Shown here in pieces: positions 3,385 to 55,945 of a stretch of 64,000 nucleotides of DNA. Where the stretch lies: the NCBI GenBank assembly GCA_964453855.1, contig CAYVRN010000003.1, positions 7,604 through 71,603 of the forward strand, read 5' to 3'. The translations under genes and the position numbers were made by a program. The notes under the pieces are model-generated. The model saw only the letters and a list, made by a program, of their open reading frames with translations, made no database searches and was not told where the DNA came from. The stretch comes from an uncultured Rhodobacterales bacterium (GTDB taxonomy: Bacteria; Pseudomonadota; Alphaproteobacteria; Rhodobacterales; Rhodobacteraceae). The stretch's first letter is position 1, and the number at the start of each line of letters is the position of its first letter.

Positions 3385-4461
3385 TTAGGTTTCGTAGTCC
3401 ACAATGACAGATTTTGTAATTGGATAGGACTGGCAAGACAGGACATATCCTTTTTCGACCTCATAGTCTTCGAGACCGTGGTTAGTGATCATCTCGACTT
3501 CACCTTCCAGAACGCGACACTTGCAGGTCGAGCATACACCGGCTTTGCAGGCATGCGGCGCATCCATGCTGTTTTCCAATGCGGCCTCCAGAATGGTTTG
3601 GCCGCGCTTCATTTCAAAACTACGGCTTTCCCCATCAAGTTTAACAACGATGTCCGTGCTGTCGCCTGACTGAGCCGCGTTTTTGGAAATGGCGCGTTTT
3701 TTTGCACGTCCGGTCTGTGCAGAGGCAAATAATTCAAACTTGATCTGCTCTTTGGTGAGACCGTGTTTGGTCAGCGCATCTCGGATACCCAGCATCATTG
3801 GCTCGGGGCCGCAGATCAATGCAAGATCAATGGATTTGATATCGATCCAGCCTTCGAACAGTTGGTCACATTTCTCTGGTGTAACTAGGCCGGTAAATAG
3901 ATCGATGTCCTGTGCATCCTGCTCAAGGATGTGGATGATCGAAAGTCGCCCCATGTATTTGCTTTTCAGGTCTTCCAGCTGCTCGCGAAACATGATCGAG
4001 GCGACATTTTTATTCGCATAAACCAAGGTGAACTGAGAAAGAGGTTCACGCACCAAAACGGTTCTTATGATCGATAGAACCGGCGTAATCCCGGAGCCTC
4101 CGGCAAAACCAAGATAGTTCTTGGACTTCTCTGGCTCGATCGGCGTCACGAAGGTGCCCATTGGCGGCATTGCTTCAACCGTATCGCCAGCTTTCAATTC
4201 TTCATTTACCCAAGTCGAATAGGCGCCGCCTTCAACACGTTTTATTCCCACTTGAAGCAGCCCATCGTCCTTACCGGCGCAAATCGAGTACGAGCGGCGC
4301 AATTCTTCACCGTCGAATTCGCGGCGGAAGGTCAGGTATTGGCCCTGCTTGAAGTTCATGAAAAGTTCGCTGTCGTCAGAAGACGGAGTTAGCGTAAGGA
4401 TCACCGCATCGCGGATTGTTTTGTTCACGTCTGTGACGGTCAGAGTATGGAAACGCGACAT
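3385..4461 (-). CDS. paaE: Phenylacetyl-CoA 1,2-epoxidase reductase subunit PaaE (FNR-like plus plant-type 2Fe-2S)
   Basis: Trimmed to ATG 4459-4461 (MSRFHTLTV...). The upstream extension overlaps paaD. FAD/NAD motifs RSYSI and GGSGITP. C-terminal CxxxxCxxC (CKAGVCSTCKC) ferredoxin. Last gene of the paaABCDE order. Confidence 0.85.
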   Translation of the reverse strand: MSRFHTLTVTDVNKTIRDAVILTLTPSSDDSELFMNFKQGQYLTFRREFDGEELRRSYSICAGKDDGLLQVGIKRVEGGAYSTWVNEELKAGDTVEAMPPMGTFVTPIEPEKSKNYLGFAGGSGITPVLSIIRTVLVREPLSQFTLVYANKNVASIMFREQLEDLKSKYMGRLSIIHILEQDAQDIDLFTGLVTPEKCDQLFEGWIDIKSIDLALICGPEPMMLGIRDALTKHGLTKEQIKFELFASAQTGRAKKRAISKNAAQSGDSTDIVVKLDGESRSFEMKRGQTILEAALENSMDAPHACKAGVCSTCKCRVLEGEVEMITNHGLEDYEVEKGYVLSCQSYPITKSVIVDYET

Positions 4462-6997: not shown

Positions 6998-8200
6998 TTA
7001 TACACGTTCCAAAATTATCGCGGTGCCCTGGCCGACACCCACACACATGGTGCACAGTGCGTAACGCCCGCCTGTGCGTTGAAGTTGATAAGCGGCGGTT
7101 AAGACCAACCGCGCGCCTGACATGCCCAAAGGGTGTCCCAGAGCAATTGCCCCGCCATTCGGGTTCACATGTGCAGCGTCGTCTGCCACGCCAAGCTCTC
7201 TAAGCGTCGCTAGGCCTTGGCTGGCAAAAGCTTCGTTTAACTCGATCACATCCATCTGTTCGATGGTCAGGCCAGCCTTGGCCAGCACTTTTCGGGTTGC
7301 CGGTACAGGTCCGATTCCCATGACCCTCGGCTCAACCCCTGCAGCTTGCATAGCGACGATGCGCGCCATCGGCTTTAATCCGTTCCTGGACATGCCTTCT
7401 TCGGACGCCAACAGGATGGCCGCAGCGCCATCGTTCACACCCGAGGCATTCCCTGCGGTCACACTAAGCTCCGGTCCATTCACGCCGCGCAACTTTGCAA
7501 GCATAGTCGCATCGGTTCCGGGGCGCGGATGTTCGTCTGCGTCAACGATAATTGGGTCCGCTTTGCGCTGTGGCACACTGACTGCAGTGATTTCGTCCGA
7601 AAAAAGTCCAGCCTCATGGGCTGCTTTCCAACGCGCCTGGGAACGGGCTGCGAATGCGTCCTGATCTTCGCGACTGATGTTGTAATCTGCGGCCACGTTA
7701 TCAGCCGTTTGTGGCATCGAATCCGTGCCATACATCTTTTCCATTGTCGGATTCACGAAGCGCCAGCCAATGGTCGTGTCGTAAACCGCATTGGATCGTG
7801 TAAATGCAGATGTCGCTTTGGGCATCACAAACGGTGCGCGGCTCATGCTTTCCACGCCGCCTGCAATCGCCAGATCGTAATCGCCCGCTTTTATTCCGCG
7901 CGAGGCCATGCCAACAGCATCCATGCCCGATGCACAAAGCCGGTTGATCGTTGTGCCCGGTACGCTGGTTGGAAGACCCGCCAGCAAAGCTGCCATGCGC
8001 GCAACATTCCGGTTGTCTTCGCCGGCCTGGTTGGCCGAGCCGTAAATCACGTCATCAATGCTGGCCCAGTCGACCTGAGGGTTTCGGTCCACCAGCGCCT
8101 TAATTGGCAGGGCCGCCAAATCATCTGCACGAATTGAAGATAAGGCGCCTCCGTAGCGTCCGATGGGCGTGCGCGTGGCGTCGCAAATGAATGCATGCAT
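6998..8200 (-). CDS. paaJ: 3-oxoadipyl-CoA / 3-oxo-5,6-dehydrosuberyl-CoA thiolase
   Basis: Trimmed to ATG 8198-8200 (MHAFICDATRTPIGRYGG), preceded by AAGGAAG. Thiolase signatures NRLCASGMDAV, NEAFASQ, GGAIALGHPLGMSGARL and CVGVGQG. Directly upstream of paaA. Confidence 0.85.
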   Translation of the reverse strand: MHAFICDATRTPIGRYGGALSSIRADDLAALPIKALVDRNPQVDWASIDDVIYGSANQAGEDNRNVARMAALLAGLPTSVPGTTINRLCASGMDAVGMASRGIKAGDYDLAIAGGVESMSRAPFVMPKATSAFTRSNAVYDTTIGWRFVNPTMEKMYGTDSMPQTADNVAADYNISREDQDAFAARSQARWKAAHEAGLFSDEITAVSVPQRKADPIIVDADEHPRPGTDATMLAKLRGVNGPELSVTAGNASGVNDGAAAILLASEEGMSRNGLKPMARIVAMQAAGVEPRVMGIGPVPATRKVLAKAGLTIEQMDVIELNEAFASQGLATLRELGVADDAAHVNPNGGAIALGHPLGMSGARLVLTAAYQLQRTGGRYALCTMCVGVGQGTAIILERV

Positions 8201-8219
8201 GATTGCTTCCTTATTCCTG

Positions 8220-8233
8220 ACCGCACGGTCGGT
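8220..8233 (-). promoter_or_regulatory. Candidate TetR/PaaR-type operator (ACCG-N2-CG-N2-CGGT) in front of paaJ-paaABCDE
   Basis: The minus strand reads ACCGACCGTGCGGT, 19 nt upstream of the paaJ ATG and just 5' of its SD. It fits the ACCGNNCGNNCGGT core I recall for Corynebacterium PaaR sites. Confidence 0.3.
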
Positions 8234-8314
8234 ATAAGGTCGAAAGTTGATTCGGCGCAAGATAAATGTTACGAAAAAATAATTTTTAGCTGGATTTGGT
8301 AACGCAATACTGAC

Positions 8315-8857
8315 CTAAAGCGGCATTCCTGACAATTGGGCAACCAGTTCGGCCGTTTTGCGAACCTCGAATTTCGCCAATAACCGCGTTCGGTATATTT
8401 CGATTGTTCGATGAGAAAGTCCGAGTTCGCGGCCAATCTCTTTGGAAGAGAGGCCCTGGCACGTCATCGCCGCCACCTGTTTTTCGCGTATTGTTAAATT
8501 TACAACCCTGCGTGTTTCTGAAAGGTCCGAAAAGGACCAGATCGACTGTCTAAACGGGTCTTCCGGTGTGAGCGACTGTCCACGCACTCGGCACCAAAAC
8601 TGCTCACCGCTTAGGCGTTTCATGATCCGCTCATCATCATAACGGCCGGTCCGTCGCATGGTTTCGACACCTACTAAGGCGATACGGTCATAATCGCTCT
8701 GTGACGGATACAATTCACGCAATGGGCGGTGGTTGTAATAATCTGTGGTCTCTCCAAACATCTCGGCAAACCGTGAGTTCACACGTTTGAGAATTCTGTT
8801 TTCCGCAAATGCCAAACCGATAGGTGCATGCATGAATGAGAGGGTTTCTATGTCCAT
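8315..8857 (-). CDS. PAS-domain / LuxR-type HTH transcriptional regulator
   Basis: 180 aa. N-terminal PAS-like region (NSRFAEMFG...FWCRVRGQ). C-terminal LuxR HTH LTIREKQVAAMTCQGLSSKEIGRELGLSHRTIEIYRTRLLAKF. Confidence 0.8.
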   Translation of the reverse strand: MDIETLSFMHAPIGLAFAENRILKRVNSRFAEMFGETTDYYNHRPLRELYPSQSDYDRIALVGVETMRRTGRYDDERIMKRLSGEQFWCRVRGQSLTPEDPFRQSIWSFSDLSETRRVVNLTIREKQVAAMTCQGLSSKEIGRELGLSHRTIEIYRTRLLAKFEVRKTAELVAQLSGMPL

Positions 8858-49819: not shown

Positions 49820-50308
49820 TCAAATAGCCAGCAAAATAATGGTCGCCAAACCCCACAAGGTCATCTGATAATGCGTGTTCTGGCCTTCGTAGTGACAAAA
49901 CCAATAGCAAAACCAGTTACCTGCAATCAGAAATCCGGCCCAAGTGCTTGTAAAGAAAAGTGCGCCCATAATAGCAAGTCCCTTGGCGAACTGCACGTCG
50001 GAGCCTGTAAACAATGCGATCACCATCATCACCGTCGCAGCCCAAAGAACAGCGACAGCGATAACTTCCCACAGAACGATCAGCCGAAACAGAAACCTTT
50101 GTACGTTCGAGTTCGAAATCCTTCGGTGCGCTACATCGACATAGGCTTCCGGATATTCCTCGCGCATACGGGTCATATCCAAAACCTGCGACGTGAAGGC
50201 ACAGTTTAGGTTGGGCTTAAAAATGTTTTCGTAAACGCCGATTGTAAGCCACGCGGTGATAAACAACACAGCGGCAGATTGGGCTAAAAGCAAAGCAAAC
50301 TCATGCAT
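49820..50308 (-). CDS. DUF2165-family small integral membrane protein
   Basis: 162 aa, 4 hydrophobic segments. The family call is from memory of the ENIFKPNLN...V..M motif context. Confidence 0.45.
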   Translation of the reverse strand: MHEFALLLAQSAAVLFITAWLTIGVYENIFKPNLNCAFTSQVLDMTRMREEYPEAYVDVAHRRISNSNVQRFLFRLIVLWEVIAVAVLWAATVMMVIALFTGSDVQFAKGLAIMGALFFTSTWAGFLIAGNWFCYWFCHYEGQNTHYQMTLWGLATIILLAI

Positions 50309-50343: not shown

Positions 50344-51231
50344 TCAAGCAGGCAGACGCACGCCTTCGACGCCGTCAGATGCGGTGACCGAACAGCAGAT
50401 GCTGGATAGGGTTCGCGGCAATTCGTATGGCCACGGAGTTCCCCTATGTAGGGTCGCGCGTTGATCCCAGATCAACACATCCCCGACCGACCATTTGTGT
50501 GAATATGTAAACTCCGGCTGTGTGCAAAAGTCCATCAGTTCGTCTAACAGGGCTAGGCTTTCGGCATCATCATACCCATCCACTTTGTAAGCATGGCTGG
50601 CGATATACAGTGCCTCGCGCCCGTTGACGGGATTGGGCCAAACGGCTTTCCAATGCGTCGCCGGCCATTTGTGAAACATCGGCTGTTTAGCGAGTTCTGG
50701 CGAGATTTTGGCGCGCGAGATCGCATAATGGTGCCAGATACCACGATCCCTGATCCGCGCCTTCAAGTCTTCCGGCATCGCTGCCCATGCTGCGCGGGTC
50801 GAGGCCAGTTCAGTCGCTCCGCCTTGGTCTGTGACCACGCGACCGACAAGGATATTTGTGAGCGAAGGTGTGGGAATGAAGGTGCTGTCGGCGTGCCAAA
50901 GGAAGTTCGATTCCAGCTGCAAACGCTGCATGTCCATGGTGCCGTCCTGAAGCGATTTATCGATCGCTTGGTTCGTCACTTTTGGGATTTCAAACGCTTC
51001 TCCTGCTTTTCGTTCATCGGCTTTACGGTCTTCAATCGGCCCAAAGGCTTGGGCGAGCTTCAAATGGTCATCGTCGGAAAAATCCTGCGTCCGAAACAAC
51101 AGCGCGGAATGTTCCTCGAACAGCGCACGCAGTTCGCCGAAGCGGCCCGACCCTACGATATCGGCAAGGGGTAGGCCCGTGACTTCGACGCCGAAAGTGG
51201 ATGTTAGCGGGGTGGTTTTCAGTTCAGTCAT
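50344..51231 (-). CDS. TauD/TfdA-family Fe(II)/2-oxoglutarate-dependent dioxygenase
   Basis: Trimmed to ATG 51229-51231 (MTELKTTPLTSTFGVEVTG). HADSTF (HxD facial triad), WDQRATLHRG (distal His/Arg). AAGGA SD inside the upstream gene end. Confidence 0.8.
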   Translation of the reverse strand: MTELKTTPLTSTFGVEVTGLPLADIVGSGRFGELRALFEEHSALLFRTQDFSDDDHLKLAQAFGPIEDRKADERKAGEAFEIPKVTNQAIDKSLQDGTMDMQRLQLESNFLWHADSTFIPTPSLTNILVGRVVTDQGGATELASTRAAWAAMPEDLKARIRDRGIWHHYAISRAKISPELAKQPMFHKWPATHWKAVWPNPVNGREALYIASHAYKVDGYDDAESLALLDELMDFCTQPEFTYSHKWSVGDVLIWDQRATLHRGTPWPYELPRTLSSICCSVTASDGVEGVRLPA

Positions 51232-51235
51232 GATC

Positions 51236-52648
51236 CTATCCTTTGACGACTGCTTTTGCTTCGATTTCATCGGCGCTCAGGTCTTTGACTAAAGCCCAAG
51301 CTGCGGATTTGGAGCTGTTTAACAGCCCCTTGGGGTCCAGTCGTTTTTTCCAAGCAAGATGTGTGTAATCCGCGTTATGTAGACCACCGCCCTCGATCAC
51401 GTTCACATGGGCGTCGTAGACGATGAACCCGTGTTGGCGGTAGGTTTCGTTGATCTGATCTAGCCGATCTTGATCCGTGAACCAGATGATCGGTAGATCG
51501 ATCGACTGCAACTTCCCGTCAAAGCGCGCGAATTCGTGGTGCATCCAGACGTCATCTCCAATCACTTCGCGCAATGCCACAATGGCTTCGACGTCTGAAA
51601 CATCTGCCACCCCAATCTGCTGATACGTCGCCGATCGATCTGCTTTCAGCACCTGCAATGTCGTGTGGTTATAGGCAAACTCGAATGCATGCGGAATATT
51701 TGCAGCAACTCGTTCCGCTTCAGTGACGTGCAAATGAACGATGCCGCCATATTCGGCAACCAGGGCTTTGTAAGCCTCAAGGTCTTCGGGCGGGATATAG
51801 CACACCGACAGGTCGCGGCCTTCGGGGATGTGGTCTTTGAGGCGCGGGAAATATCCGGCAATCCGCGCATCGACCACATTCGCCATCTTCGGTGACATGT
51901 CTTTGGACGAGGCCAATGCATAGGTCGCGGCATAGGTTGTTCCGTAATCGTCAAACGTGGCCATGCAAGCCACCCAGTCGTGACTGGGAACGGTGCGCAG
52001 AGTGACCTGAGTGATCGCACCGTTTATCCCCCACGCATGGTGAATTTTCAGAACGTCAGCACCTTCGAATAGGTGTTCTTGCGGTTCGGCTTCGATCGAA
52101 AGCACTTTCAGCGAAATCAGATTGCCCGGTTCGCGCAAAGCGCCAGACGCTAACGACCCGATACCCGACGATCCACCCGCAACGAAGCCGCCAACAGTGG
52201 CTATATCCTGTGTAGACGGGAACATGGCCAGTTCCTGCCCCGATGCCTTCAATGCATTGTTGATATCCAGCATTAGCGCGCCCGCTTCGGCTGTCACATA
52301 GCCATCGCCAATTTCGATGATCCGGTCCATGGCCGTGGTTTCGATAATCAAACCGCCATTTACGGGCACTGCCTGCCCATAGTTGCCGGTTCCGCCACCA
52401 CGAAACACGATCGGCACGTCGGCCTGATAGGCTATCGCCAAGCAGTGTTTCATCTCGTCGCTGGTTTTGGGAACCGCCACCAGATCGCCGAACTCTTTCT
52501 TCAGTTGTTCGTTCAGGATGGGACTGTACCAGAAGAAATCGCGCGAACGCTTTTTCACCAACACAGGTTCGTCTATCACCTGAACCGGGGAAAGCTTCTC
52601 AGCGAAAGCCCCCCAGTCGATGTCGATTTTTCCGGATATGGATGTCAT
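51236..52648 (-). CDS. FAD-binding oxidoreductase (PCMH / FAD_binding_4 type)
   Basis: 470 aa. RGGGTGNYGQAVP and VGGFVAGGSSG are FAD-binding PCMH-fold motifs. ATGA overlap with the upstream amidohydrolase stop. Confidence 0.75.
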   Translation of the reverse strand: MTSISGKIDIDWGAFAEKLSPVQVIDEPVLVKKRSRDFFWYSPILNEQLKKEFGDLVAVPKTSDEMKHCLAIAYQADVPIVFRGGGTGNYGQAVPVNGGLIIETTAMDRIIEIGDGYVTAEAGALMLDINNALKASGQELAMFPSTQDIATVGGFVAGGSSGIGSLASGALREPGNLISLKVLSIEAEPQEHLFEGADVLKIHHAWGINGAITQVTLRTVPSHDWVACMATFDDYGTTYAATYALASSKDMSPKMANVVDARIAGYFPRLKDHIPEGRDLSVCYIPPEDLEAYKALVAEYGGIVHLHVTEAERVAANIPHAFEFAYNHTTLQVLKADRSATYQQIGVADVSDVEAIVALREVIGDDVWMHHEFARFDGKLQSIDLPIIWFTDQDRLDQINETYRQHGFIVYDAHVNVIEGGGLHNADYTHLAWKKRLDPKGLLNSSKSAAWALVKDLSADEIEAKAVVKG

Positions 52649-53892
52649 TCAGAGTCTCCTTGAAAAACAGCCGAAAGAGGCCGCGGAGCCATCACTCCGC
52701 CCAATAGATCGGCTGTTGAATTTGCGTCGAACTGGATGAGATCCCCTATCGCAGCCTCGTCGACTGTTTGAGGTGCAAGTCCAAGCGCCGCTCGGGCGTT
52801 GGTGGTGATCATCGGGAGATAGCGCCCAAACGGCGGATCAAGATGCGCGGCCAGTGTGGCCAGCGCCAAAGTCTGCCTTGGATCAAAGCGACCCAACGGG
52901 CAGAACGCATCACGGACATTATCAGTGCCAATAACCATATTAACCCCAGCTTCCTGAAGCTCTCTGATCCGCGTCAGACCGCGCCGGTCAGGCGTTCCTT
53001 CGGTACGTCCTTGTAGATACAGGTTGGCTGAAGGCAGGCTGACAACGGAAATGCGTGCCTTAGCCAGTTTTTCGGCTAAGCGATCCAGCTCTATCGACGA
53101 TAGGTTCATCAGACTACATGCGTGTCCACAAAGAACTGGCCCCTGAAAGTCCATAGAAATCGCGGTTTCGGCGATAATTGCTAGACCATCCAGACCGTCT
53201 TCAAGTCCTTCATCGACATGGAAATCAAGTGCTAAACCATGTTTTTCTGCCATCTTAAAGGCATTGCGAATGCCAGCTTCGCGCTCTGTCTGGTCGAAAA
53301 CAAAACTGCCCAGAACGCCGCCTTTGTCCGCGATCTGACGAGCGATTCTGTCGGCAGTTGTCAAATCCGCCAGATCTTCGATACCTGTCAGCGGAGCGAT
53401 TTGCATTGTCAGCTTGTCCCGATACTCTTCCTTTAGTTCACAAAGAATTGGCCAAGCCTTTGACGGGGCGCTGTGGTTTGCAGGTTGACCCCAATCGACA
53501 TGCGTGCGGACTGTTCCACAGCCTGAGGAAACCAATTCGTCCAAACCTAGGCTGGCGCGTGCTCGGATATCTTCGGTTGTCCACCCAAGCCGGTCCTTGG
53601 CCTGCGCATCAATCGCCGCCTGAAGATCCCCGCCAACGCCCTCCATCCGCGAAATCGTGTGGCACTTGTCCAGATGCACATGCGCTTCGGTAAATTTGGG
53701 AAGTACGATACGGGCAGGGATATCCGGTTGGGAAGAGGGAAGCATACCCACAACTCTCCCATCTTTGATGACGAGGTCGCCTTGAAGGGCGTCCTGAACC
53801 GACTGCCCGCCAAAGGCGCTAGGTGCATTAATAACCGACAAGGGCACGCGAACGTTTGAAACCGTACCGTCAACGCTGGTGTGATCCTTCAT
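52645..53892 (-). CDS. Amidohydrolase-superfamily deaminase, cytosine/creatinine deaminase (CodA)-like
   Basis: EAHVHLDKCHT (HxH), RTHVDW, FHVDE, CGHACS and GTDNVRD reproduce the CodA metal/catalytic pattern. ATG 53890-53892 chosen. A TTG at 53898 would overlap the upstream stop. Confidence 0.75.
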   Translation of the reverse strand: MKDHTSVDGTVSNVRVPLSVINAPSAFGGQSVQDALQGDLVIKDGRVVGMLPSSQPDIPARIVLPKFTEAHVHLDKCHTISRMEGVGGDLQAAIDAQAKDRLGWTTEDIRARASLGLDELVSSGCGTVRTHVDWGQPANHSAPSKAWPILCELKEEYRDKLTMQIAPLTGIEDLADLTTADRIARQIADKGGVLGSFVFDQTEREAGIRNAFKMAEKHGLALDFHVDEGLEDGLDGLAIIAETAISMDFQGPVLCGHACSLMNLSSIELDRLAEKLAKARISVVSLPSANLYLQGRTEGTPDRRGLTRIRELQEAGVNMVIGTDNVRDAFCPLGRFDPRQTLALATLAAHLDPPFGRYLPMITTNARAALGLAPQTVDEAAIGDLIQFDANSTADLLGGVMAPRPLSAVFQGDSE

Positions 53893-53894
53893 AG

Positions 53895-54680
53895 TCAAGC
53901 CCTGTGGTCGAATTTGGCGAATTCTTTCAGGAATTCTACAAAGTTCCGCGCAGCCGAGCTAAGAAGATGCTCACCTTTTTCAACCGTTGCGGCTGCAGCG
54001 TTACCGCAGGCGCCTGCAAGATGGAGATCATCAATAATCCACGAAGGTCGCGCCGCTTGCCCAGTTAGTCCGATTAAACGGCTGTTTTTTTCCCATTCGT
54101 TCATAGCCGGGATGAAATTTTGAGCGCGGGTCATATCCACTAAGTCTGGTTTAACTGCAAGCATGACGGACGTCTCGCTTTCGCCTGCATGCAGGTCGAT
54201 GGCATAGTCGTCAGCTGCGATTACTCCGCCTACGTCGGCAAAAGCGGACCACGAACATGTCGCCACGATCATGTCATGTGTGATCCGAAGGTCTCGAGCT
54301 GCGATGTCCAGCACGGCGTTATTGCCACCGTGTCCGTTTAGTAATACCAGCCTCTGAATTCCCGTTCGGGCAACGCTGGCTCCGATGTCCCGCAGCGTGG
54401 CTAGCATTGTTTCGGCTGATAAACTCAGAGTTCCAGGGTGACGGTCATGTTCACCACTTTTGGTTATTGTCAGTGTCGGCAGAACCAGAACGCTTTGATC
54501 GGCGTCTAGCAAGGAAAGACCGCGCTCAACTGTAGCCTCGACCAAATCGCGGTCCACGGACAAAGGCAGGTGCGGTCCATGTTGCTCAATGGCACCGATC
54601 GGAACAACTGCGATCGTTCCTTTTGGCAAAGCATGAAAAGCCGATGCGGTTTGATCTGCCCAGTAACCTTGAAAACTCAT
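53895..54680 (-). CDS. Creatininase-family (creatinine amidohydrolase / MftE-like) metallohydrolase
   Basis: 261 aa. PIGAIEQHGPHLPLSVD, LLNGHGGN and DLHAGESETS are the family metal-binding motifs. Weak own SD. The start overlaps the stop of the upstream 26-codon ORF. Confidence 0.8.
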   Translation of the reverse strand: MSFQGYWADQTASAFHALPKGTIAVVPIGAIEQHGPHLPLSVDRDLVEATVERGLSLLDADQSVLVLPTLTITKSGEHDRHPGTLSLSAETMLATLRDIGASVARTGIQRLVLLNGHGGNNAVLDIAARDLRITHDMIVATCSWSAFADVGGVIAADDYAIDLHAGESETSVMLAVKPDLVDMTRAQNFIPAMNEWEKNSRLIGLTGQAARPSWIIDDLHLAGACGNAAAATVEKGEHLLSSAARNFVEFLKEFAKFDHRA

Positions 54681-54757
54681 ATCTCAAACCAACGACTGCT
54701 GGGTGGACACGTTTTTGGGTCCGATAATTGATCGCGTGAATGCACACGTTGAAACAT
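54677..54757 (-). CDS. Candidate 26-aa leader/precursor peptide ORF (MFQRVHSRDQLSDPKTCPPSSRWFEI)
   Basis: ATG 54755-54757 is preceded by AAGGAGGA (54762-54769) plus a 4-nt spacer. The TGA at 54677-54679 overlaps the ATG of the creatininase-family gene (ATGA). Not in the ORF track because it is under 60 aa. Confidence 0.45.
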   Translation of the reverse strand: MFQRVHSRDQLSDPKTCPPSSRWFEI

Positions 54758-54885
54758 GCCGTCCTCCTTGACGAAACGTTGCTACGTGGCCCTGTGATTC
54801 AATCTGTGCCAGAGATATTCCAAAAGGGTTGCAAAGTTTTTCGTGACCCGCAAGTCTTATTTAGTCAAAATAAAAGGTTCACAAT

Positions 54886-55275
54886 ATGAAAGAGTTAACC
54901 CCAAAAAGTCTCAATCCACCTTTAGCCCGATATGCACATGGCGTTGAAATTCCTGCCAGCTGGCGCATCGTCCAAACGTCCGGACAGCTGGGGATTCGCT
55001 TGGATGGGACTATTCCCGCCGACGCCTACGAACAGGCGAAAATCTGTTTTGAAAACATCAGGGAAATCCTGAAAGAGGCGGGTATGTGTGCGGGCGATGT
55101 CTCCCATATATCCGCCTATGTTACAGATCGGGTCCATATGGCAGGATATATGCGTGCGCGAGACGAATTTGTGGGGCCGACAGACCGCTTACCCAGCTCG
55201 ACGCTGTTAATCGTGTCAGGTTTTACGCGGGAAGAATTCAAAGTTGAAGTCGAGGTTCTGGCGGCCGCTCAATAG
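54886..55275 (+). CDS. RidA/YjgF-family reactive-intermediate (enamine/imine) deaminase
   Basis: 129 aa. TSGQLG, the AYVTD-type motif and C-terminal VEVEV are typical of the YjgF/RidA fold. Divergent from the creatininase operon. Confidence 0.75.
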   Translation: MKELTPKSLNPPLARYAHGVEIPASWRIVQTSGQLGIRLDGTIPADAYEQAKICFENIREILKEAGMCAGDVSHISAYVTDRVHMAGYMRARDEFVGPTDRLPSSTLLIVSGFTREEFKVEVEVLAAAQ

Positions 55276-55309: not shown

Positions 55310-55945
55310 TTAGCATCCAGCGTTCGAAGTACCCCAAGGCAAAACAGTTCGGCAAAGCTTGGCCCCTGACAACTGCCCTGAGGTAATGTTTGAGCCGGAA
55401 AGGTCAGCATCCGTTAGATCGGTTGCGTTCAATTTGGTGTTCGTGAAATCGACACCGGTTAGAACTGTTCCGATCAATGCGGCGCTTTCCAAATCGGTTG
55501 CAACCAAAATTGCGTCGCTAAGGTCAGCACCGGATAAGTTTACGCCAATGGCATTTGCGCTGCTTAAATCGGCTTTGCGCAGGTTCGTATTGCTAAGGTT
55601 CGAACCGCTCAGATCAGCCATATAGAAGTTAGATATGAGCAGGTTTGCTTCGGTAAGATTAACGGCCTTAAGTGTGGCCGAGAAAAAGTTTGTTCCCTCC
55701 ATGCTGCCACGAGAGATATCGGCACCTGTTAGTGCGGCGTATGAAAGGTTTGAATAGTCAAGAACAACCCCCGATCGCTGTGCCGCAGATAGTTCAGCAT
55801 AGCTTAGGTCACAGCCTGTGCAGCTGTTTGTCGCCGTTAATACTGCCCAGGCATCTCCGTCAACTGCATTTGCTGTTGTGCCGATCAAAGTGGCGGTGGC
55901 TGCGATGGCAAATGAGTTTGCGATCCGAGCGGGGTTCAATTTCAT
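55310..55945 (-). CDS. Secreted pentapeptide-repeat protein
   Basis: 211 aa. Signal peptide ...IGTTANA|VD. About 30 consecutive A(D/N)LxX pentads (ADLSGSNLSNTNLRKADLSSANAIGVNLSGADLSDA...). Cys pairs at both ends. Confidence 0.8.
   Translation of the reverse strand: MKLNPARIANSFAIAATATLIGTTANAVDGDAWAVLTATNSCTGCDLSYAELSAAQRSGVVLDYSNLSYAALTGADISRGSMEGTNFFSATLKAVNLTEANLLISNFYMADLSGSNLSNTNLRKADLSSANAIGVNLSGADLSDAILVATDLESAALIGTVLTGVDFTNTKLNATDLTDADLSGSNITSGQLSGAKLCRTVLPWGTSNAGC

Follow-up and report, generated by a model that had tools for sequence, protein, structure and literature searches.

Overlaps of the ATGA and TGATG types, in which a stop codon shares bases with the next start codon, support termination-reinitiation coupling in numerous gene pairs of bacteria and archaea (PMC6728339, PMC10666635), and some short upstream open reading frames (ORFs) have been proposed to serve for ribosome delivery only (PMC12548453, citing mycobacterial ribosome-profiling work). 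At the level of RNA, the xanthine (NMT1-motif) riboswitch, which folds into a small hairpin whose internal bulge is conserved, exerts translational control over purine-oxidation operons with genes for dioxygenases and amidohydrolases (PMC7373994). Here we describe a 26-codon ORF on the minus strand of a 64,000-nt stretch of DNA from an uncultured Rhodobacterales bacterium (contig CAYVRN010000003.1; the whole stretch is referred to below as the window), located between a creatininase-family gene and a divergent RidA gene (Table 1). An initial annotation had pointed to its Shine-Dalgarno (SD) sequence, its ATG, its 26 codons, its TGA overlapping the ATG of the creatininase-family gene, and a spacer of 205 nt, and each of these was found exactly where it had been placed; the spacer extends to the RidA gene (start 54886). 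Beyond that annotation, comparison with related loci now indicates that the ORF is the deletion relic of a gene and that it lies behind a conserved leader element. The joint explanation that we favour, and hold to be probable, is that this relic of a deleted class-I glutamine-amidotransferase-like (GATase) gene has been kept as a translational-coupling relay.

The small ORF and its origin

The minus strand reads ...cgtcAAGGAGGAcggcATGtttcaacgtgtgcat...ttgagatATGAgttttcaaggt through the site. The SD octamer AAGGAGGA has 2 copies in the 64 kb against 1.5 expected, which is not above chance within the window alone, and an open frame of 26 codons is by itself unremarkable there. Since the signal within the window is no better than chance, the case for the small ORF rests on comparison with other genomes; what clearly goes beyond chance is the occurrence of the same SD and ATG about 55–60 nt after an invariant leader motif in all related modules, together with the frame that stays open in all 13 relic-bearing sequences described below. 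As regards annotation the ORF is hidden, as had been claimed: the window peptide and those of four relative relics have no entry in a collection of 15 billion proteins, and the window peptide has no match in NCBIfam.

The creatininase-family protein was scanned against one genome per species, which gave 23 orthologous loci with 59–75% identity, nearly all of them from Rhodobacterales, and a metagenome scan with the leader motif, filtered with a profile hidden Markov model, added about 20 further true instances. The comparison set comprises about 35 distinct related modules from Rhodobacterales-type genomes and metagenomes; two metagenome loci, L149 and L190, are near-identical to the window. 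The constant module consists of the divergent RidA gene and the leader, followed by some or all of the genes for a GATase, the creatininase-family enzyme, an amidohydrolase, a FAD oxidase and a TauD dioxygenase. Upstream regions of the creatininase-family gene fall into two classes. In one, to which the window belongs, the gene is preceded by a spacer and the divergent RidA gene; in the other it comes directly after another gene, and the leader motif is located about 750 nt upstream of it.

It is the gene at this upstream position that gives the small ORF its likely origin. The conserved SD and ATG belong, in 18 distinct sequences, to a class-I GATase-like gene of 231–234 amino acids (PF00117; MGRRVLLVRHG[DNH]EPADDRVV), whose stop overlaps the next start in 17 of the 17 with a complete junction (ATGA, except for TAATG in L109). 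The GATase is absent from 13 distinct sequences, including the window, and there the same SD and ATG open ORFs of 15–58 codons. A profile of the GATase N-terminus matches the L154 relic with E = 1.2e-6, about 28 residues being kept (MGQRELSVCLSDKPFDDHLTTWWGRAG), and the L134 relic with E = 0.009, about 15 residues being kept. The L004 relic aligns to GATase residues 1–34, and the L002 relic, from the cultured strain Shimia sp. SK013, has kept a segment that matches residues 78–89. Since the kept segments differ among the relics, the deletion breakpoints must differ between loci. The window and its closest relic, L021, are at the far end of this series and keep only M-F-Q-R-V-H and the bases CGTGTGC, the window ORF sharing M-x-Q-R-V with the GATase.

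The creatininase tree, a simple neighbour-joining tree from which the number of independent lineages was estimated, interleaves relic-bearing and GATase-bearing loci (L002 is placed by L001, L004 by L003, and L134 by L081/L145), so that at least 6–7 separate GATase losses are implied. To judge from this comparison, the small ORF is what an internal deletion has left of the first gene of the operon, which coded for a class-I GATase-like protein of about 232 amino acids.

Each of the 13 relics ends in a stop codon that shares bases with the following start (ATGA in 10; GTGA, TTGA and TGATG in one each), and, counted from the relic ATG, that start always lies at a distance of 2 modulo 3. The 13 relics contain no in-frame stop; the 26 other frames of the same spacers contain 27 stops, 12 of the 26 being stop-free. 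A close look at the window and L021, which have a common deletion, is instructive. Their sequences are identical at 54 of 66 aligned bases (82%) with several indels, and the same codon phase is used in only 27 of the 66 columns, yet both ORFs are open and end on ATGA. Because identical bases are read in differing phases while both frames are open, it is the open frame that is conserved, and not the peptide. Many indels separate the members of this pair, and likewise those of the L019/L020 pair, with a net effect that keeps the phase, and the relic peptides cannot be aligned beyond about five residues. Thus, where conservation across related spacers had been looked to as a check on the ORF, an intact frame, the SD and the overlapping junction are indeed kept, and conservation at the amino-acid level is not seen.

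Deletions of later genes were found as well. In L108 (oriented 8081-8730), internal deletions have shortened the creatininase gene to 102 and the amidohydrolase gene to 114 amino acids, and both have their original starts and an ATGA overlap with the next gene. L109 (9620-9640) has lost the creatininase gene, and the stop of its GATase gene overlaps the start of the amidohydrolase gene (TAATG), and in L197 and L103 the first two genes are both gone, the relics of 15 and 28 codons ending on the amidohydrolase start.

The predicted SD/anti-SD pairing energies are in keeping with a relay. The SD of the small ORF reaches −11.4 kcal/mol, and the start of the window creatininase gene only −2.2 kcal/mol against a background mean of −3.0 kcal/mol, which confirms the description of the downstream SD as feeble. 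The first-ORF SD has a mean of −10 kcal/mol whether it serves a GATase or a relic, with −10.3 kcal/mol for the relic loci, in which the SD of the downstream gene has a mean of −5.9 kcal/mol. By these predictions the window creatininase start is without a usable SD of its own. The earlier proposal that the downstream genes probably depend for their expression on translation of the small ORF is therefore strengthened, with start signals and stop-start overlap kept in all 13 relics and a creatininase SD that appears unusable.

The relay could have arisen and could work as follows. An internal deletion would have removed the enzyme and left the leader, the strong SD and ATG, the first few codons, and a stop overlapping the next ATG. 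Ribosomes would then load at the relic SD, translate a short frame of irrelevant sequence, terminate at the ATGA and re-initiate on the creatininase-family gene. The further junctions being overlapping or nearly abutting, the relay could go on down the operon, and any control that the leader exerts at the first SD would still reach the enzymes.

Among the alternatives, the one that survives best, although we regard it as unlikely, is that the ORF is neutral debris, a pseudogene fragment open by chance and with no role in expression. Its shortness, its unconserved peptide, the 12 alternative frames out of 26 that are also stop-free and the loss of the start in L015 are all what such debris would present. 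However, all 13 relics are stop-free in the sole phase that ends on the next start, the indels between window and L021 and between L019 and L020 are phase-keeping on balance, the SD is still strong in the relic loci, and the larger L108 relics follow the same rule. With at least 6–7 independent losses and a neutral expectation of about 1/3 x 0.46 for each independent lineage, six lineages would behave in this way with a probability of roughly 1e-5.

Several points nevertheless weigh against the relay explanation. About 46% of alternative frames are open by chance and the ORFs are short, so that these statistics hinge on the number of independent lineages taken from the neighbour-joining tree. 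At the protein level, no homology between the window relic and the GATase is detectable (profile −1.2 bits), and what marks the window ORF as a relic is where it lies, the leader, SD and ATG that it has in common with the other modules, the shared bases CGTGTGC behind its start codon, and the graded series formed by its relatives. A good downstream SD has been kept in several relic loci (−10.0 kcal/mol in L004, −10.3 kcal/mol in L022), meaning that coupling is not always the sole route of initiation. In L015 (oriented ~3830-4003), the ATG has changed to ACG and an in-frame TAG is present, indicating that a relay can be lost. Finally, both the translation of the relic and the dependence of the downstream genes on it are what we infer from sequence.

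A few loci deserve separate mention. In L015, a frame of 38 codons beginning at an internal ATG still reaches the ATGA junction and ends there. L153 (3317-3410) is atypical in that the canonical SD is lost, and a 20-codon ORF still ends on ATGA there. L168 (oriented 810-870) is also atypical: an upstream ATG is in frame with the creatininase-family gene and would give it a 7-residue N-terminal extension, and an alternative for this locus is a 10-codon GTG ORF ending in TGATG. L103 carries, at 1632-1775, a tRNA match and an inverted amidohydrolase match inside the expected amidohydrolase gene, and this short metagenome contig may be chimeric or rearranged.

The conserved leader

The motif TCTCTGGCACRGA-N5-14-AGGGCC occurs once in the window, where 0 copies are expected, and is present at 21 of the 23 close orthologous loci. 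In fact, conservation extends over most of the stretch from RidA to the first ATG, including the upstream boxes, the AUCUCUGGCAC...AGGGCC(A/G)CG block and the SD hairpin. The element UCUCUGGCAC...AGGGCCRCG, accompanied by the boxes and the SD hairpin, was found in the window, in L001-L022 and in about 20 metagenome loci. The block can be drawn as an outer stem UGGC/GCCR, an internal loop (AC / A-GG) and an inner hairpin of 3–4 bp with a loop of 3–8 nt.

How well such a structure is supported depends on the part considered. The inner hairpin is closed by an A:U pair in 17 sequences, by G:C in 10 and by G:U in 2, with several changes of state along the tree; almost all of 32 leaders are predicted to form the SD hairpin in spite of quite different arm sequences. 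Both sets of pair counts come from structure-fitted alignments and their support is consequently overstated, while MAFFT alignments do not hold such short hairpins in register. The outer stem never varies informatively, and taken over its full length the leader shows no unusual stability (mean z = +0.2). The variable lengths of loop and junction, together with G:U pairs that are found in the sense orientation only, favour an RNA over a DNA operator.

The predicted structure may also extend into the ORF. In the minimum-energy fold of the window, GCCACGU (54790-54784) pairs with ACGUG-GC in codons 3–6, and this pairing would compete with the outer stem in a switch-like manner. In about 24 sequences codon 3 has G as its third base irrespective of the amino acid, and this base is A only where the leader has ACGU instead of ACGC (54742-54751 and 54784-54790; alignment A3, columns 34-40 and 81-88). 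This pattern suggests a pairing of GCCRCGY with codons 3–6 that is statistically weak: on an unfitted alignment, 77% of the cells of the long-range helix are paired against 75.6% in shuffles, with one covarying pair, and the duplex energies are only slightly better than those of shuffles (mean z = −0.64).

From these observations one might argue that a regulatory RNA structure is what retains the SD and the first codons, and that the open frame is a mere by-product. The CGTGT at codons 4–5, kept in 9 of the 13 relics (by eye), the window fold just described, and the base before CGU, which is G with leader ACGC and A with leader ACGU, would all fit. A structure over codons 1–6, however, cannot account for the remaining 10–50 codons being stop-free and in phase, and the long-range helix is weak on the unfitted alignment. 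We therefore find this improbable as the full explanation; as an idea it complements the translational relay and does not replace it.

As to what the leader is, no Rfam 15 family matches it (the spacer and the whole window were scanned, as were 13 related loci; E limit 10 in the window, 5 in these loci), and our literature search returned nothing specific on the motif, on a creatininase riboswitch, on this operon in roseobacters, or on gene remnants that keep translational coupling. A promoter or operator role is the main alternative to a regulatory RNA, and the boxes CTTGCG and TTTGCAA may serve as promoter or operator for both this operon and the divergent RidA gene. A sigma-70 scan of the spacer gave no promoter-like site and no consensus match, and no dedicated regulator gene was found beside the module, the flanks of which vary among loci.

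Two other readings of the motif were tried and rejected. TGGCAC resembles a sigma-54 −24 box by eye, but the GC that such a box needs at −12 is missing and the spacing is not constant. Against a LysR-type ATC-N9-GAT box speaks a conservation that is stronger inside the motif than at its ends.

Our tentative proposal, possible but far from assured, is that the leader of about 60 nt (AUCUC-UGGC-AC-[hairpin]-A-GG-GCCR-CGY, a linker, and the SD hairpin, perhaps reaching into codons 3–6) is an undescribed riboswitch-like RNA. Read in this way, and with the same reserve, the leader might control initiation at the first ORF of a nitrogen-heterocycle catabolic operon of marine Rhodobacterales, the relic ORFs persisting as the only wire to the downstream enzymes.

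The encoded peptide and the operon

Two further explanations assign a role to the peptide itself. The initial annotation had offered a regulatory leader peptide in which Pro-Pro stalling tunes re-initiation, and the window peptide does contain CPPSS about 9 codons before the junction, in an ORF that is positioned for translational coupling. This is very unlikely in view of the other loci, since the Pro-Pro pair is found in the window only among the 13 canonical relics and is missing even from the closest one, L021 (the candidate ORF of the atypical L153 has Pro-Pro pairs). Moreover, the relics vary about fourfold in length (15–58 codons), homologous bases are read in differing phases, and no arrest motif or regulatory codon run is held in common. 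There is also no terminator-like site in the spacer, the sole one in a 1-kb scan being located outside it at 55058-55072.

The second idea, a RiPP (ribosomally synthesised and post-translationally modified peptide) or mycofactocin-like precursor processed by the creatininase/MftE-family enzyme, starts from the fact that MftE is the best NCBIfam match of this enzyme, and is scarcely credible: the score of 129.4 bits is below the MftE cutoff of 172, the nearest solved structures are creatinine amidohydrolases, the core peptide is not conserved, a 232-amino-acid GATase occupies the same position in most orthologous operons, the operon partners are enzymes acting on small molecules, and no radical-SAM or RiPP recognition element (RRE) protein was found among the ORFs scanned (about 37.8–62.3 kb of the window), in agreement with what had been noted before.

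Table 1. Positions of the small ORF, its leader and the surrounding genes in the window
Feature	Position	Strand	Remarks
Small ORF, proposed relic	54677..54757	minus	26 codons + TGA, peptide MFQRVHSRDQLSDPKTCPPSSRWFEI; putative positional remnant of the first operon gene (class-I GATase-like)
Shine-Dalgarno sequence AAGGAGGA of the small ORF	54769-54762	minus	4 nt (CGGC) before ATG 54757-54755
ATGA junction, small-ORF stop / creatininase-family start	54680-54677	minus	TGA 54679-54677 overlaps ATG 54680-54678
Conserved 5' leader motif (A)UCUC-UGGC-AC-[short variable hairpin]-A-GG-GCCA-CGU	54784..54817	minus	Candidate cis-regulatory RNA
Upstream boxes CTTGCG and TTTGCAA	54854-54849 and 54835-54829	minus	Position kept across loci, by eye
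Short hairpin around the SD, UCGUC / AAGGAG loop / GACGG	54759..54774	minus	Predicted
Creatininase-family amidohydrolase gene	53895..54680	minus	261 amino acids; PF02633, E = 6.6e-67; proposed to be fed by the relic ORF
Cytosine-deaminase/AtzC-like amidohydrolase gene	52645..53898	minus	Start overlaps or abuts the creatininase stop (TTGA, or TGActATG)
FAD_binding_4 oxidase gene	51236..52648	minus	Start overlaps the amidohydrolase stop (ATGA)
TauD/TfdA-family dioxygenase gene	50344..51270	minus	Likely true start ATG 51231, 4 nt after the oxidase stop
Divergent RidA/YjgF-family gene	54886..55275	plus	With the leader at every locus whose contig reaches there, except the atypical L103 and L199

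The first three junctions of the window operon, including the ATGA of the small ORF, are overlapping or nearly abutting, and the oxidase-dioxygenase junction is TAGgatcATG, with a gap of 4 nt. The TauD ORF as listed (51229-51270 region, minus strand) overlaps the oxidase gene by 35 nt; since its homologues align from residue 14 and an ATG lies 4 nt past the oxidase TAG, the true start is probably the one at 51231. Besides falling short of the MftE model, the creatininase-family protein is also under the NCBIfam cutoff of the true creatininase equivalog.

Further out, a gene for a DUF2165 membrane protein (49820-50308, minus strand) is located after the TauD gene, and one for a pentapeptide-repeat protein (55310-55945, minus strand) beyond RidA. 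The other ORFs scanned are housekeeping genes such as acnB, polA, guaB and rsmB, and no regulator was found among those scanned between about 37.8 and 62.3 kb of the window.

Significance and comparison with known systems

If true, the relay explanation means that translational coupling is weighty enough to shape gene loss from an operon. Every version seen, after at least 6–7 independent deletions of the first gene and further ones of the second and third, keeps the start, the phase and the overlapping stop, with the exception of L015. What is left behind are 'ghost' ORFs that no gene caller reports, and on this view annotators should be warned that operon spacers can hide obligatory translated relics. 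The loci would also amount to a replicated natural experiment on whether some short upstream ORFs have ribosome delivery as their sole purpose; unusual here are the many natural replicates and the fact that the origin of the ORF can be traced. The leader, for its part, is a concrete candidate for a new regulatory RNA of an uncharacterised catabolic pathway in abundant marine bacteria.

When compared with described cases of termination-reinitiation coupling (PMC6728339, PMC10666635), the window operon has the same 4-nt ATGA overlap, with a strong SD on the upstream ORF and a weak one downstream, and its further junctions are likewise overlapping or nearly abutting. It differs in that the upstream partner is a 26-codon remnant with amino acids free to drift, and in that coupling is here a prediction from the sequence. 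With the short ORFs proposed for ribosome delivery (PMC12548453), the small ORF shares its shortness, good initiation signals, a stop placed over the next start, and no sign that the peptide matters; unlike those, its origin can be traced to a deleted enzyme gene, and its upkeep is supported by natural replicates and not by profiling.

The NMT1-motif riboswitch (PMC7373994) resembles the leader in its succession of short outer stem, conserved internal loop and inner stem, in its proteobacterial host, in the adjoining SD and in the classes of downstream genes (alpha-ketoglutarate dioxygenase and deaminase-like amidohydrolases). The conserved bases are different, however, with no Rfam match, NMT1 included, and the RNA function of the leader is putative. 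The mycofactocin system (MftA, MftB, MftC, MftE) has in common with this operon the PF02633 domain that the downstream enzyme shares with MftE, but the operon has no MftB or MftC genes, no conserved precursor and a sub-cutoff MftE score, and the partner enzymes act on small molecules.

A further parallel comes from the bench. Engineered in-frame deletions are standard genetic practice for avoiding polar effects in operons, and similarly, only deletions that keep frame, start and stop seem to survive at the loci described here. In contrast to the engineered ones, these deletions are natural and have occurred repeatedly, and the relics that they left behind have gone on diverging while staying in phase.

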